Numbered from the stretch's first letter, positions 6,930-13,977 are shown. The stretch: DNA of 64,000 nt from an uncultured Candidatus Saccharibacteria bacterium (GCA_964624665.1 CAZUZG010000001.1:7310-71309), one strand, 5' to 3'. Notes: generated by a model not told the origin, from the sequence alone. Program-made: numbers and translations.

Positions 6930-8642
6930 CTATGCTTGGAAACCAGGTTGAATATTTGGTTTTTGAAAATAAGTTTTAATTAAATCATGTGTATTAGCGT
7001 GAGTAAAATTCAAGTTAAAGTACATACAATGCATTGAAACAATTTTCAGAGGTTCTTCTGTATTGGCCTCATTATGCAAGAAGTATTTTCTTTGATTATT
7101 TGTACCAACAACCCAATCATGTTCATTCCCTAAAGCCCCTTTAATTGCAAAATCAAGAACACCTGCCAAAGTTCTAGCAACATTCCCATCAACAAGTGAA
7201 GAATCCCAATCAGAAACTATATTCAGAAATTTTGCTTTACTCTGAGGTTTTAAACTTAACAAGTCTTCGAGCTCTTTAGAATCTGGTGACATTTCTATAC
7301 ATGCCTTTTGCTTTAAAAAGAAGTCTGAAGAAAACTGTAAAAAAGCCAAAATAATTTTTCCAGAACCTGGCGTAGATAATGATTTTAAAATACTAAGTCC
7401 TCTCGCAATTTGCTTGCCCACTTTAAACCACCCTACTCCATTTGCACCAGAAAACATAATCACCTTATCAATAGGAATGATATTATCATTGCTCTTATCT
7501 GCAAAGCGTTTAGAAACCAAAGCTCCCCTACTGGCTGAGACAATAGAAACAGGTTGAGTAAATACATTGCCTGCTATTTTTTTCAAAAACCATTCAACAT
7601 TATCTTGGGCATTTTCAGAAACAGTTGGGTGATTAAATGCAATTATTTGCTCAAAGACACCTTCATCAATTAGATTATTTAAAAGAAACCGTCTGTTGTA
7701 TGAAACATTATACAAATTTGAAAAGGTACCACTAACAGAAGCAAACGTACCATGTATTAACAATAGAGTTTTCTTAGAAAAATCAATAGGCTCTTCATCA
7801 ATGGATTTAAAAATACCTCCAATCTCCATTTTCTCATGATTATCGTACTTAATGTAATTTAAGATTGCATATTTTTTAGCTCCAAACAAATAATCACCAA
7901 TGTCATCTTTATAGGAAAGATCTTTACTATTTGCATGCAAAGTATCTTTAGCCTCTTGAATTAATATTTCGGCTGTATTAGCGGCTCTTTTATAAGTTAA
8001 GACTTTAACAATAAATGAAGAAATTCTTGTTTTCCCAAGTATATCAAATCTTTCGCTTCTTGTTCTCAATTGGTCCAGTGGTATTAAAAATGTTATACGA
8101 TCCCTTTCCACTGAGTAATCATCTGCTCCCTTTTCAGGCATCACAAATTCTAATGGAGCATTTTCCTCATCATAATTATTTATTGTTGAATGCTGCAAAT
8201 AAGCAATTGCACCTTCATCTGCATCTAAGAAAACAGTCAGTCTTAAATAAGGCATTTCATTTGACCTATTAAAATCAATAAGCCTGCCAACTTCCATATC
8301 ATCGAAATTGATAAACCTTTCTCTAACTAAATTTTCCTTGCCATCCCCAAACGGATTTATGCTATAAATATCATTTACAACTTTTAATGTGGCTCCTTTT
8401 GAGTGAAAGTTACCATCATCTGTGAATTCAATTTTTCCAGAAAAACTTGGAATTTCATTATCCTCCCAACCTAGAGTTCCCCAAACACCAGATATTCCTT
8501 GAGAATTTCCATTTTTGAGCTTTTCTTCTAATAATTTTGTTTCATTCTGATTCATTTCATCTGACTTCACTGAACCCAGCACAAAAAATGATTTATCATT
8601 TAATTCGTATGCCTTTTCAGCATTAAAATTTATTACAGCCAT
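6930..8642 (-). CDS. Alpha/beta-hydrolase-fold (lipase/esterase-like) protein with ~270-aa N-terminal domain of unknown function
   Basis: KTLLLIHGTFASVSG (oxyanion/HG region) and VSIVSASRGALVS (nucleophile-elbow-like SxSxG) in the C-terminal half. 570 aa with no signal peptide. Confidence 0.5.
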   Translation of the reverse strand: MAVINFNAEKAYELNDKSFFVLGSVKSDEMNQNETKLLEEKLKNGNSQGISGVWGTLGWEDNEIPSFSGKIEFTDDGNFHSKGATLKVVNDIYSINPFGDGKENLVRERFINFDDMEVGRLIDFNRSNEMPYLRLTVFLDADEGAIAYLQHSTINNYDEENAPLEFVMPEKGADDYSVERDRITFLIPLDQLRTRSERFDILGKTRISSFIVKVLTYKRAANTAEILIQEAKDTLHANSKDLSYKDDIGDYLFGAKKYAILNYIKYDNHEKMEIGGIFKSIDEEPIDFSKKTLLLIHGTFASVSGTFSNLYNVSYNRRFLLNNLIDEGVFEQIIAFNHPTVSENAQDNVEWFLKKIAGNVFTQPVSIVSASRGALVSKRFADKSNDNIIPIDKVIMFSGANGVGWFKVGKQIARGLSILKSLSTPGSGKIILAFLQFSSDFFLKQKACIEMSPDSKELEDLLSLKPQSKAKFLNIVSDWDSSLVDGNVARTLAGVLDFAIKGALGNEHDWVVGTNNQRKYFLHNEANTEEPLKIVSMHCMYFNLNFTHANTHDLIKTYFQKPNIQPGFQA

Positions 8643-8712
8643 GATGAAAATTATTTAGTTTTTAATTTCTGTATTATTAATCTCATTAAATAGAAAATTT
8701 AATGAGAGTTCA

Positions 8713-9351
8713 TTAAAATGAACTGCTCTTTTTTACTGAATCAATAAAAATTTTTTCATTCTTTTTATTTTGAAGATCAACCTCAATTAGATTATTTTCT
8801 TCTTCAATCTTGTTGGAAATCCAACAAACAACTCTAAAGCCTCTTTTTTCAGTTTTAATTCCTAATCGAATTATTTTATTCCCCTTTTCCCAAATATAAT
8901 ACCAACGAATCCAATCTGTCGCCTCATATGAGCTAATCGATGGTCCTGTTTCACCATATTTTTCTATTATAGAATTTAAGAATCTTTCCAGATAATTTGC
9001 AAAGCAGGTTGAGTCTTTTAAATCGGCAGGGCTTAAAAAATTAGTTAAGGTGTCGACACCAATGAATTGAATTTTATACAGTTCATTATACTTATTAAAA
9101 AATGGAGTCAATAAATAATTGTCTTTACCGGCTATCAATACTGTATCTGTTTGATTAACAATTTTAAATTTGTCAGCAGATATTCCAAAGTTAATTGACC
9201 CATATACTTTATTCTCATCTTCATTTTTAGAAAAAAAAAATTTTCTTTCAGCAGAATTACTATCTAAAGAAGTTGGATTATCATCAATCTTCTCCGGCTC
9301 AGAATTACAAGCATAGAAAAACACTATAATAATTAAGGGTAAATATTTCAT
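8713..9351 (-). CDS. Lipoprotein (hypothetical)
   Basis: Signal peptide with lipobox IIIVFFYAC-NSE. Confidence 0.55.
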   Translation of the reverse strand: MKYLPLIIIVFFYACNSEPEKIDDNPTSLDSNSAERKFFFSKNEDENKVYGSINFGISADKFKIVNQTDTVLIAGKDNYLLTPFFNKYNELYKIQFIGVDTLTNFLSPADLKDSTCFANYLERFLNSIIEKYGETGPSISSYEATDWIRWYYIWEKGNKIIRLGIKTEKRGFRVVCWISNKIEEENNLIEVDLQNKKNEKIFIDSVKKSSSF

Positions 9352-9414
9352 TTTCTATGCTTGCTTTTTATGAGTTCTTTGTATTTATAATTAAACTTAA
9401 GAAAAAAATCTCAC

Positions 9415-12462: not shown

Positions 12463-12472
12463 TCATTACAGA

Positions 12473-12967
12473 TTATATCCTCTTATTTCCCCTCGATATT
12501 TTTTGATTCCTAACAACTTCTATCGCTGCAATAATACTTTTATGCACCATTGCTTTGTAAGCTGTGTCTAAATGCAATTCGCCCCCACCATTACTTTCCT
12601 CTAATGTTCTTACTATGTCTTTGGCAATTGGAATGCTTGATAGCAGATCAAGTCCGGAGCTTGATGATTTAAACAGCTTCCAGCCGATATAATGGTTATG
12701 GATTTGATGGATGCAAAGAACATCAAAGTAATATGATTTAAATTCAATTCTTAAACCTTTTCTGTATGCAGAAAACAAACTTTCCTTTTTCCATATCAAC
12801 TTCATTTTGCTTTTCTGAAATTCATTATGGCGCAAAATTTCCATCACGACTTCATAAAATTCATCAGCCGAAATACCAAGATTATCCATTATCTCATTCC
12901 AACTCCCGATTTCTTTCGGTGGTTTGAACATACTGGAACCTGCATTAAATCCATCTGAAAATGACAT
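12473..12967 (-). CDS. Hypothetical protein (164 aa), middle gene between the J-domain protein and the ATPase
   Basis: 10-nt and 14-nt gaps to its flanking genes on the same strand. No motif recognised. Confidence 0.5.
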   Translation of the reverse strand: MSFSDGFNAGSSMFKPPKEIGSWNEIMDNLGISADEFYEVVMEILRHNEFQKSKMKLIWKKESLFSAYRKGLRIEFKSYYFDVLCIHQIHNHYIGWKLFKSSSSGLDLLSSIPIAKDIVRTLEESNGGGELHLDTAYKAMVHKSIIAAIEVVRNQKISRGNKRI

Positions 12968-12981
12968 TCTTTTCTTTTACG

Positions 12982-13977
12982 TTATTTATTCTCTATATCC
13001 CTTAATTCAATATATGCGTGCGATAAATCCAATATTTCTTCATCGGTTAAAGTCTTAGGGTCTCTTTCCATTAACTCTTGGATATACCAGTCGGCAACTC
13101 CGCCGTAATAACAGACTGTTTTTGTATTTCGGCCTAAAACTTTATCGCCCCATATTTCTCCGGCTATTAAATACAAAGGATAGAATACAATGCCTTGAAT
13201 GATCTTGGCTATCCATACTGGAATATCAAACAGCAAACTATGCCTTGCATTATTCCGAGCTTGATGGGAAGCAGTTTCATAGAAACCCAACCCTATATTC
13301 ACAAACCACCAAACGACCTTGTATATATCCTCCGGCATCCATGCCGCTGAAAGCGGTATGATAGCGAGGAAGCAGGAAATAATCTGTAGAACCCAAAAGA
13401 AACTGGCAATAGAAATTATTACGGGAAAGAAGAAGCCAATAAGGGATATTGGAATCATAATATACATGCTCATCATAATGGAGGTTAAGCATTGAGCCGG
13501 AATTTGATTTTCCAATTCATGCTTTAAATACTCTCTTACCTTAATCCCCTGCGTTATTATTATATCTTTCATTTCCAACTTAAATCCGGTAGCCACAACT
13601 TCTTCCCATATCTCCCTTAGCTTGTCTTGCATCATCGATGCTTTTTCCCTCAGATATTCCCCAGGGTCTTTAGGCGATTCCCAAGCACTCTTATCTACCT
13701 TTTCTTCTACATGATATTCACCTTTGACATACCTGGTCAATAATTCAATACATGGTTCAATGCTTTGAAAATTCTGAGTGTATTTCCTTGTAAGTTCGGC
13801 GTTGTCTAATTTTTCAATTTTATCCGGATGCCATTTAATGGAAGCGCGCTTTTTAATCTTTGGAATATCCTCAAGGGTAACTGAATCCAAGTCGGTTATC
13901 TCGAGAATTTCGAGAATCTTATCTAAGGTTATGTCTTCCATTGTCGGAAAGTTTAGATTTGATAGTGAATATACCAA
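12982..13977 (-). CDS. J-domain (DnaJ-like) protein with C-terminal polytopic membrane domain
   Basis: N-terminal KILEILEITDLDSVTLEDIPKIKKRASIKWHPDKIEKLDNAELTRKY contains the HPD tripeptide in J-domain context. Followed by at least 4 hydrophobic helices (IMMSMYIMIPISLIGFFFPVIISIASFFWVLQIISCFLAIIPL...). Confidence 0.7.
   Translation of the reverse strand: MVYSLSNLNFPTMEDITLDKILEILEITDLDSVTLEDIPKIKKRASIKWHPDKIEKLDNAELTRKYTQNFQSIEPCIELLTRYVKGEYHVEEKVDKSAWESPKDPGEYLREKASMMQDKLREIWEEVVATGFKLEMKDIIITQGIKVREYLKHELENQIPAQCLTSIMMSMYIMIPISLIGFFFPVIISIASFFWVLQIISCFLAIIPLSAAWMPEDIYKVVWWFVNIGLGFYETASHQARNNARHSLLFDIPVWIAKIIQGIVFYPLYLIAGEIWGDKVLGRNTKTVCYYGGVADWYIQELMERDPKTLTDEEILDLSHAYIELRDIENK

Follow-up and report, generated by a model that had tools for sequence, protein, structure and literature searches.

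The locus analysed here raises the question of which of its genes act together, and in what process. Five ORFs follow one another on the minus strand, separated by gaps of 14, 10, 63 and 70 nt, within a 64,000-nt stretch of DNA (the window). They encode a J-like membrane protein, a 164-aa protein, a 1015-aa ATPase, a lipoprotein-like protein and an alpha/beta-hydrolase-like protein. The coordinates, the orientation and the gaps given in a preliminary description were confirmed, but its proposal that the five genes form one unit was not borne out. Only the 164-aa gene and the ATPase gene are inherited together; in 79 of 83 related loci, which come from many phyla and had their ORFs called naively, the two lie side by side in the same orientation. 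The conserved unit is an uncharacterised, widespread two-gene cassette consisting of the 164-aa partner and the 1015-aa ATPase. Matches to it occur at no fewer than 587 places in species-representative genomes of many phyla, including Patescibacteria. The cassette is patchily distributed, element-borne and at times present in several copies, and viral contigs carry it rarely (three relatives). The features of the cassette, its neighbours and the surrounding element are listed in Table 1.

Table 1. Features of the cassette, the neighbouring genes and the integrative element (positions counted from the first nucleotide of the window)
Feature	Coordinates	Strand	Description
Backbone HTH_3	3791..4069	+	Pfam match
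Backbone HTH_36	4012..4770	+	Pfam match
Backbone RuvC-like protein	4751..5257	+	Pfam match
Alpha/beta-hydrolase-like protein	6930..8642	-	DUF7379, 570 aa; co-directional neighbour outside the cassette
Lipoprotein-like protein	8713..9351	-	212 aa; co-directional neighbour outside the cassette
ATPase	9415..12462	-	1015 aa, soluble, coupling-protein-like, fused to a nuclease-like domain; cassette gene 2
ATPase, C-terminal domain	9418..9927	-	aa 846-1015; restriction-endonuclease-like (PD-(D/E)xK-type)
ATPase, P-loop motor	10063..11325	-	aa 380-800, with inserted all-alpha domain; Walker A/B, DPHGD, H679-Q680
ATPase, N-terminal domain	11353..12210	-	aa 85-370, Pfam DUF8128; two beta-alpha-beta-beta-alpha-beta units
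Small partner protein	12473..12967	-	164 aa; cassette gene 1; divergent soluble version
J-like membrane protein	12982..13977	-	J-like domain and polytopic membrane part; called gene 12982..13941, 319 aa
J-like domain	13735..13911	-	aa 23-81, with HPD motif (WHPDK)
HTH ORF downstream of recombinase	19760..20032	-	90 aa; matches 'HTH3x2' cluster (18 loci)
Large serine recombinase	20205..21956	-	Element integrase with C-terminal HTH_3; Pfam Resolvase, Recombinase, HTH_3

Domain organisation of the cassette proteins

The genes are genuine and not chance ORFs. For the ATPase, the database contained 1955 relatives at E ≤ 1e-5, the best 120 of which are about 1000 aa long and match with 96-100% query coverage and 43-48% identity. 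Invariant residues of the DUF8128 domain include E130, E192, D206, K267, R331, E344 and H350; no paper on DUF8128 was found. The motor belongs to the FtsK/HerA superfamily of P-loop ATPases, and all motifs quoted in the preliminary description are present: Walker A (G408-VTGSGKST-416), DPHGD (436-440), VYVDEC with the Walker B residues D651-E652, and LTLSHQ with H679-Q680. The Walker residues are invariant across 75 homologues. The helices of the inserted all-alpha domain span residues 479-598 in the AF2 model of the protein (pLDDT 86).

The earlier label of a HerA/FtsK-like motor had to be revised. The motor is of the VirD4/TraD/TrwB/VirB4/DndH type rather than HerA proper; HerA and FtsK are more distant from it than is the VirB4/TrwB/DndH clade. 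Residues 392-712 match the Pfam family TrwB_AAD_bind (25.5 bits, cut-off 20.5), and Foldseek aligned the model with TrwB at TM-scores of 0.61-0.64. The top PADLOC matches are defence ATPases, namely mad8 (4e-19, residues 402-737), DndH (1e-5) and HerA, the HerA matches spanning only the P-loop. The mad8 profile derives from PDB structures matched in HHpred, so that a match to it is generic for the clade. A transmembrane anchor was not detected: across the 1015 aa, no 19-residue segment reaches a Kyte-Doolittle mean of 1.6.

The C-terminal domain follows a disordered linker (residues 806-844) and contains the motifs KVDVGLI, KIAVEISS and NFVIVCP, as reported before. It has the alpha-beta-beta-beta-alpha-beta core fold of the PD-(D/E)xK superfamily. 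Four of its residues, E875, D884, E897 and K913, do not vary among 75 homologues; D884 is located on strand 2, E897 on strand 3 and K913 on the next helix, and the motif reads E-I-S (E-x-S), not E-x-K, which counts against the defence reading discussed below. Matches to Pfam CoiA_nuc and SfsA are weak (5 of 41 members each). The small partner adopts a KA1/START-like alpha+beta fold. Most of its relatives are hydrophobic or anchored in the membrane, but the protein of this window is not.

The serine-recombinase element

A serine-recombinase integrative element carries the locus as cargo, a point that the preliminary description had overlooked. At about 30 of 82 loci, a full-length orthologue of the recombinase (39-51% identity) is encoded close to the cassette, and the window recombinase shares 38-54% identity with the recombinases of related loci. 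The 90-aa HTH ORF resembles the second HTH_3 of relatives, which in some of them forms part of the recombinase and in others is separate, at the end of the element; two HTH_3 domains are found in the recombinases of L002 and L089. Homologues of the HTH_3, HTH_36 and RuvC-like genes (block 3791..5257) occur in the same order in three related loci (L002, L006 and L010). In 55 related loci, the recombinase gene abuts comM, which is interrupted at about residue 352. The integrative elements of this family occur across many phyla, and most are inserted at about codon 352 of comM. The window contains no ComM-like ORF, so that its element either resides elsewhere or was rearranged; the ends of the element were searched for and not found. 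A description of this element family, with its comM target and its spread across phyla, or of the cassette was not found in the literature.

In cassette-less relatives, the slot upstream of the recombinase is occupied by a Pycsar system (L120), a type I restriction-modification (R-M) system (L136) or a DUF4365 gene (L139). PADLOC assigned type I, II and III methyltransferases, RmrA and capP among 106 ORFs from 25 cassette-less loci. Elsewhere, the cassette has defence-like neighbours, including OLD nuclease, TIR, STAND NTPase and HNH genes as well as toxin-antitoxin pairs. One minimal island (L090), flanked by housekeeping genes, combines the cassette with toxin-antitoxin pairs and a tyrosine integrase; at another locus (P0005), the cassette is present and an integrase is absent within 8 kb. 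Comparable arrangements are defence-carrying integrative elements, integrase-adjacent cargo hotspots and the ccr operons of SCCmec. Like these, the elements described here place a site-specific large serine recombinase beside a variable slot, which holds Pycsar or R-M genes in sister elements.

Candidate functions of the cassette

A role in conflict or defence, as proposed earlier, is still the most likely function. The best reading, which we hold tentatively and at somewhat less than even confidence, is an element-borne, ATP-driven translocase-nuclease that attacks invading DNA. The partner, membrane-associated in most relatives, would hold or regulate the ATPase. The latter may form a ring like its structural relatives and load on foreign DNA from phages, plasmids or incoming conjugation. 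It would then translocate along the DNA at the expense of ATP, while the tethered, putative nuclease domains cut. By loading on, moving along and cutting foreign DNA, the cassette would protect both the host and the element. In favour of this reading count the conservation of the pair, the presence of motor and nuclease-like domain in one chain, the PADLOC matches to defence ATPases, the position at a slot that holds defence genes in cassette-less relatives, the defence-like neighbours, the occurrences apart from the recombinase, the lack of a transmembrane segment in the ATPase, the scarcity of transfer genes and the rarity in viral contigs. A more specific version, possible yet more doubtful, is that of a widespread, undescribed immunity against invading DNA, composed of a domesticated coupling-protein/VirB4 motor, a restriction-type nuclease and a small membrane-associated partner. 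This system would have spread across phyla in the cargo slot of the comM-targeting elements and would have, in the sublineage of the window, a separate membrane partner whose J domain would bring DnaK to the complex. In view of the ancestry of the motor, its targets might specifically be plasmid or conjugative DNA.

The cassette corresponds to none of the described systems, in agreement with the preliminary description, and PADLOC recognised no defence system at the locus; this result and the generic nature of the mad8 profile count against the defence reading. Defence ATPases of the same clade are DndH/DptH of Dnd restriction and mad8 of MADS. In contrast to Dnd, DptF/DptG and the dnd modification genes are absent here and the nuclease is fused in cis. 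In PADLOC, no protein of the operon or its neighbours matched mad1-7, the MADS genes that include a methyltransferase, a specificity subunit and a kinase. HerA-DUF4297, HerA-SIR2 (Nezha) and HerA-NurA employ a separate effector, whereas it is fused here to a motor of the VirD4/VirB4/DndH branch and not of the HerA clade; a DUF4297 or SIR2 effector was not matched in the five proteins or their neighbours.

The main alternative, somewhat unlikely but serious, assigns the cassette to the element backbone. A coupling-protein-derived translocase-nuclease, co-expressed with the recombinase, would nick or cut and move the excised element's own DNA, be it for mobilisation via the secretion system of a helper, for export by another route, for replication or for resolution. 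SCCmec elements offer an analogy, as they co-express a helicase with the ccr recombinases. The fold and the Pfam family of the ATPase, those of VirD4/TrwB/VirB4, are in line with this alternative, and the preliminary description had anticipated that a canonical coupling protein with T4SS or relaxase genes nearby would speak against its own model. The coupling-protein-like fold was indeed found; relaxase and T4SS genes are absent from the window and from most related loci. Compared with coupling proteins (TrwB of R388, TraD, VirD4, DotL) and VirB4, the ATPase lacks the N-terminal membrane anchor and adds the DUF8128 domain and the C-terminal nuclease-like domain, the latter without profile similarity to Replic_Relax (hhalign probability 5.6%). 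The missing anchor and this missing similarity both argue against a backbone function.

A link to conjugation is an 886-aa DUF87 protein of Bacillus plasmids (for example NZ_CP032854.1). It is likewise soluble, and its similarity to the ATPase (23% identity, E 8e-25, query residues 115-715) covers both the motor and the DUF8128-like N-domain. It heads a Tcp-like conjugation operon beside a Replic_Relax (MobC-type) relaxase. This homology favours the backbone alternative and counts against defence. Unlike the ATPase of the window, the Bacillus protein has an acidic tail and no nuclease domain, no small partner gene precedes it, and its gene is embedded in a full conjugation operon. Where an element has a coupling protein of its own, the usual partner is a MobC relaxase (PMC5704250), a point that was counted for the backbone alternative. 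In 8 loci, a short paralogue of the ATPase is encoded beside Replic_Relax and DnaG-like primase genes, and about 10 loci contain short-small-long gene strings; both tie the family to mobilisation modules. ArdC and RadC genes, which occur in the elements, point in the same direction. The relaxase, however, accompanies the short paralogue in no more than 8 of the 81 related loci and was found in none of 80 recombinase-seeded loci, and T4SS genes were present in none of the annotated and inspected related loci.

The relation between cassette and recombinase bears on the same alternative. The cassette is located directly upstream of the recombinase, on the same strand and within 0-350 nt, in 23 of 45 loci, and the pairwise identities of ATPase and recombinase are correlated (Spearman 0.49, permutation p ≤ 5e-4, 45 loci). 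The tight spacing and the correlated divergence fit a backbone operon and count against defence. On the other hand, no ATPase of the family is encoded in 6 of the 16 recombinase loci with good flanks, and in such cassette-less loci known defence genes fill the slot instead, and the cassette also occurs without an integrase nearby, with a tyrosine integrase, and in Patescibacteria.

It is improbable that the cassette repairs or recombines DNA or serves addiction or stabilisation, for instance by HerA-NurA-like end resection or FtsK-like resolution of element multimers, with neither invaders nor transfer as its target: the RuvC-like gene in the same elements would suit it, but the spread of the cassette on elements is unlike that of housekeeping repair genes, the ATPase belongs near VirB4/TrwB/DndH and a NurA-like partner is absent.

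The J-like protein and the other neighbouring genes

The J domain of the first gene had been called unmistakable, which proved too strong. It is plausible, as an HPD motif is present in the loop between helices II and III (KKRASIKWHPDKIEKL, matching the HPD of DNAJB2 and DNAJB6 in the alignment) and the six best PDB matches (phmmer) are all J domains (E 0.005-0.47), DNAJB2 being the first (E 0.0054). The match to Pfam DnaJ is below the cut-off (14.2 bits, E 0.047; cut-off 27.8). Transmembrane-like segments were identified at about residues 173-191 and 247-265. Among 5.8 billion protein sequences, the search returned only the J-like protein itself, and no homologue is encoded in the 82 related loci. 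ORF fragments directly upstream of the closest relatives of the small protein match its C-terminus in two short metagenome contigs, L172 and L173 (in L173, 33% identity over 84 aa, E 1e-8). A third relative with a small protein of the window type (L174) has an unrelated ORF in this position. The preliminary description had named a lack of co-occurrence between J gene and ATPase as evidence against it. Because the J-like gene is absent from the 82 loci and recurs only in the two contigs, this lack holds largely for the family, the two sublineage contigs being the exception. Judging from these comparisons, the J-like gene is a rare, lineage-specific third gene added to the cassette. In this divergent sublineage, the partner has lost its hydrophobic segments; the polytopic J-like protein encoded just upstream probably provides the membrane anchor, and its J-like domain might recruit DnaK.

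The N-terminus of the 212-aa protein (MKYLPLIIIVFFYAC) is of the lipoprotein type, and the protein matched no family; the hydrolase belongs to Pfam DUF7379 (E 6e-17). Neither protein has a homologue in the 82 related loci, which argues against the five-gene model. Contigs L172 and L173, the two informative ones, end before the expected position of the two genes. A single membrane-anchored system for defence or toxin delivery that comprises all five genes, with the J protein recruiting DnaK and the DUF7379 hydrolase as effector, is very improbable in view of these absences, the unrelated ORF in L174 and the distinctly lower GC content of the last two genes, despite the shared direction, the short gaps, the lack of a detected intrinsic terminator in the four intergenic gaps and the recurrence of the J-like gene upstream of the cassette in both contigs. 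The GC content is 28-32% in the lipoprotein and hydrolase genes compared to 35-38% in the three upstream genes (28% in the lipoprotein gene versus 37% in the ATPase gene). Both genes are unrelated neighbouring cargo.

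Anatomy and distribution of the two-gene cassette

The preliminary description had reported five co-directional ORFs on the minus strand with gaps of 14, 10, 63, and 70 nt; positions and gaps matched exactly (table below), and all sequence motifs quoted there were found in the window proteins. Two of these genes, encoding a small partner protein and an ATPase, are referred to as the cassette.

Coordinates of features in the window and, where a locus is named, in related loci
Feature	Position	Strand	Remarks
J-TM (membrane protein with J-like domain)	12982-13977	minus	331 aa
Small partner	12473-12967	minus	164 aa
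ATPase	9415-12462	minus	1015 aa
Lipoprotein	8713-9351	minus	212 aa
Hydrolase	6930-8642	minus	570 aa
Large serine recombinase with HTH	20205-21956		on mobile island
Separate HTH ORF	19760-20032		90 aa
HTH_3, HTH_36, RuvC-like genes	1-22 kb		on mobile island
HicA, SymE, RelA/SpoT-like, HNH genes	1-22 kb		on mobile island
Conflict-type cargo	16137-19628, 641-1108, 5299-5544
82-nt direct repeat	14288-14369, 14561-14642
Unannotated ORF	14417-15475		352 aa
70-nt repeat	3720-3789, 5234-5303
Cell-surface locus	24989-57854		chromosomal
ORF convergent to short paralogue	59563-60216		217 aa
Short paralogue	60219-61514	minus	431 aa
C-5 cytosine methyltransferase	61522-62514
R-M-like trio	59563-62514
Recombinase/comM junctions (examples)	L017 4905-6467; L021 14653-15780; L108 11472-12554
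Locus of 659-aa ATPase	L108 4933-9893
Cassette with tyrosine integrase	L090 9488-14495
Short paralogue loci	L018, L020, L029, L040, L044, L067, L076, L123 (~2 kb upstream of long ATPase)
Further short paralogue loci	L024, L060, L069, L071, L073

The Pfam profiles DUF87 (29.7 bits) and TrwB_AAD_bind (25.5 bits) both exceeded their cut-offs on the ATPase. The AlphaFold model (75 sequences, mean pLDDT 86) displays an N-terminal domain (N-domain, ~85-370) of two beta-alpha-beta-beta-alpha-beta units, which corresponds to DUF8128 in the precomputed Pfam annotation, a P-loop motor (~380-800) with an inserted helical domain, a disordered linker (806-844), and a C-terminal domain (C-domain, 846-1015) of alpha-beta-beta-beta-alpha-beta-alpha topology; Foldseek agreed with this anatomy. 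Judged from the model, the C-domain is a predicted nuclease. Among 75 homologues, the Walker residues are invariant, as are E875, D884, E897, E907, N910, and K913 in the C-domain and E130, E192, D206, K267, R331, E344, and H350 in the N-domain. No TM segment was detected in the ATPase. A search for papers on "DUF8128" returned none, and the literature on TrwB_AAD_bind and defence yielded nothing specific.

Relatives of the ATPase amount to 1955 proteins at E ≤ 1e-5, the best 120 of which are all ~1000 aa long and share 43-48% identity with the query at a coverage of 96-100%. They are encoded at no fewer than 587 places in species-representative genomes of Bacteroidota, Acidobacteriota, Planctomycetota, Verrucomicrobiota, Patescibacteria, Chloroflexota, Desulfobacterota, Pseudomonadota, and other phyla, with two or three copies in some genomes. 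Lacibacter luteus TTM-7 (L040), Mucilaginibacter sp. OK098 (L053), and M. phenanthrenivorans BJC16-A38 (L061) are cultured bacteria that carry the cassette. ORFs were called naively (longest ORFs, greedy overlap removal) and clustered in 83 loci, the related ones being the best 80 per search and many lying on short metagenome contigs; a small protein of ~160-230 aa is encoded directly upstream of the ATPase on the same strand in 79 of them. The HMM detected the small partner in 78 out of 81 loci.

Two architectural variants were observed. The ATPase of locus L108 (659 aa) has the same C-terminal predicted nuclease domain without the DUF8128 N-domain; a TM plus SPFH/Band-7 protein comes before it, and a DNA methylase, a short paralogue (motor-only relative), and the recombinase come after it. 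The long ATPase (~1000-aa form) of L090 ends in an excisionase-type HTH_17.

Elements inserted in comM and their cargo slot

The region from 1 to 22 kb of the window is a mobile island. Its conflict-type cargo comprises an HNH_5 protein of 387 aa, a 287-aa RelA/SpoT-domain protein that may be a small alarmone synthetase toxin, HicA and a partner, and a SymE-like toxin, none of which gave a PADLOC system match. Orthologues of the serine recombinase (39-51% identity) accompany the cassette in ~30 of 82 loci. Both genes occur in 45 loci. The recombinase follows the ATPase in 44 of these; the two share a strand in 38, and in 23 they do so at a distance of at most 350 nt. The one exception to the downstream position is the window, where the recombinase lies 7.7 kb upstream. 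The pairwise identities of ATPases and recombinases correlated in the 45 loci (Spearman 0.49, permutation p ≤ 5e-4), a value confounded by host relatedness.

A ComM/YifB-like ORF directly adjoins the recombinase gene in 55 loci, and in every case it is interrupted near residue 352 of 513. Such a break is a signature of exact site-specific insertion and, whatever the cassette does, defines a large cross-phylum family of serine-recombinase elements precisely targeted to one site (codon ~352) in the competence helicase gene comM/yifB. With their swappable cargo (Pycsar, R-M, cassette), these elements should help in the discovery of defence systems and supply integrases. No comM was found in the window, and a search for the element ends there revealed neither convincing direct repeats nor a tRNA. 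The literature on comM and serine recombinases held nothing specific. Other recurrent element genes encode ArdC, RadC, a DnaG-like primase, HTH regulators, and a RuvC-like protein; otherwise the cargo is highly variable (OLD nuclease, TIR, STAND NTPases, HNH, kinases, FRG, IS elements, and toxin-antitoxin pairs).

In the reverse test, metagenome contigs were searched with the recombinase as seed, and the analysis covered the 16 loci that are flanked by 7 kb or more in either direction. The family ATPase was present in 10 and absent in 6 of these, and the small partner was present in 6 of the 16; seven of the 10 ATPases came from ORFs >2.7 kb, which places them in the size class of the long form. 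In cassette-less loci, the slot upstream of the recombinase contained a Pycsar system (PycTM plus cyclase, L120), a type I methyltransferase (L136), DUF4365 (L139), or a primase (L114). A PADLOC scan of 106 ORFs from this slot in 25 cassette-less loci matched capP (6), RmrA (5), and methyltransferases of type I (4), II (3), and III (2). Since known defence genes replace the cassette, the slot is a cargo and defence hotspot with the cassette as one alternative occupant. Two further contexts fit a self-contained cargo: the L090 islet (7.8 kb), located between housekeeping genes, combines the cassette with a tyrosine integrase, and in P0005 the cassette has no integrase nearby. In L090, the small partner and the long ATPase are accompanied by the tyrosine integrase in place of the serine recombinase, and two toxin-antitoxin pairs flank the islet.

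The window recombinase has one C-terminal HTH_3 and is followed by a separate HTH ORF. The recombinases of L002 and L089 carry two fused HTH_3 domains, so a split or a frameshift may have affected the window gene.

Possible functions of the cassette

The domain anatomy, the conservation of the gene pair, the restriction of J-TM to one sublineage, the setting in an element, and the location in a hotspot lead us to infer, tentatively and at slightly less than an even chance, that the cassette most likely encodes a translocase–nuclease that is carried by the element, driven by ATP, and directed at invading DNA. As a defence module, it would represent a new family that occurs at least 587 times in genomes of many phyla and in which a conjugation-type DNA motor is re-used as a weapon with the nuclease fused in the same chain. 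Compared with HerA–DUF4297 or Dnd restriction, such a design would be simpler, and it would be an appealing subject for work on structure and mechanism.

The main rival, somewhat less likely, is that the cassette processes or moves the DNA of the element itself, a reading to which several links to conjugation point. An 886-aa DUF87 protein of Bacillus plasmids shares the N-domain and motor with the ATPase (E 8e-25) and heads a conjugation operon with a Replic_Relax (MobC-type) relaxase, TcpE, and a VirB4-like ATPase as neighbours. Short paralogues (390-510 aa, motor only) occur in 35 loci; they adjoin Replic_Relax and primase genes in all eight loci with a relaxase and form short-small-long gene strings in ~10. 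Given these positions in strings or beside a relaxase and DnaG-like primase, the family has mobilisation-linked and cassette-linked members. In mobilisable plasmids and putative integrative mobilisable elements, a self-encoded coupling protein pairs with a MobC relaxase (PMC5704250). However, the C-domain showed no similarity to the Replic_Relax profile. If the cassette did serve the element, it would point to a hitherto unknown way for small integrative elements to process their DNA or transfer it between distant phyla despite lacking a secretion system. The C-domain as a MobC/Replic_Relax-type relaxase fused to a coupling protein was unsupported (hhalign probability 5.6%).

For MADS, Dnd, HerA-effector systems, and canonical coupling proteins, a defining feature of each was looked for and not found in the cassette, which is therefore a member of none of them. 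PADLOC gave generic ATPase hits (mad8, DndH, HerA) without partner genes for the five proteins and ten neighbours, in agreement with the earlier view that the locus matches no described system. A canonical conjugative coupling protein, which, together with T4SS or relaxase genes in the wider locus, had been named as the assignment that would speak against a defence role, fits the fold, but the ATPase has no TM anchor and carries the extra predicted nuclease domain, and neither a relaxase nor a T4SS was found in the window. A phage origin or packaging ATPase was rejected, as the cassette is almost absent from IMG/VR viral contigs (3 relatives) and phage genomes gave partial matches only.

J-TM and other genes of the window

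The J domain of J-TM, first called unmistakable, is plausible but marginal: six J domains were the top matches of its first 110 residues among PDB sequences with HPD aligned (E 0.005-0.47), whereas Pfam DnaJ scored 14.2 bits, below threshold. No relatives of J-TM were found among 5.8 billion proteins. The small partner of the window is a divergent family member (17-26% identity to others), and its closest relatives sit in two short metagenome contigs. In L172, the small protein is 82% identical, and a fragment directly upstream matches the J-TM C-terminus; in L173, the small protein is 38% identical, and the upstream C-terminal fragment shares 33% over 84 aa (E 1e-8). The ORF upstream of a third relative (L174) is unrelated. 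These matches, together with their lack in L174 and 82 other loci, make the J-TM gene a lineage-specific third component and not a family feature. Non-co-occurrence of J-TM and ATPase, which the preliminary description had listed as counting against it, thus applies to the 82 loci, yet the fragments in L172 and L173 overturned the view of J-TM as a pure orphan. The J-TM variant would offer a link between Hsp70 chaperones and such a motor that is open to test.

That all five genes form one system, as originally proposed, is highly improbable, since blastp at 1e-4 found homologues of J-TM, lipoprotein, and hydrolase in none of the 82 other loci. The hydrolase belongs to Pfam DUF7379 (E 6e-17). 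The lipoprotein and hydrolase genes have a GC content of 28-32% compared to 35-38% in the three upstream genes. No intrinsic terminators were found in the gaps between the five genes, and a sigma-70 promoter scan was uninformative (31 sites observed, 31 expected).

Two repeats were noted on the island. The copies of an 82-nt direct repeat are 89% identical, lie at a distance of 273 nt, and span the start region of an unannotated ORF. Those of a 70-nt repeat (70% identical, core AAAATTCCCCCTACTT) lie just upstream of the HTH_3 gene and the SymE-like gene and may be a shared regulatory region.

The chromosomal cell-surface locus encodes an NHL-repeat protein with a T9SS sorting domain, giant SprB-repeat, Ig, PKD, and DUF6443 proteins (3241, 1288, 1922, and 1937 aa), and OmpH and OmpA-family proteins. 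These genes identify the host as one of the Bacteroidota that glide or possess a T9SS. The window also encodes a motor-only short paralogue (family profile E 1.6e-99; PADLOC mad8 1e-12), located 7 nt downstream of a C-5 cytosine methyltransferase gene. Together with the convergent ORF, which contains a PD...EVK motif, these genes resemble an R-M module composed of methylase, motor, and possibly nuclease.
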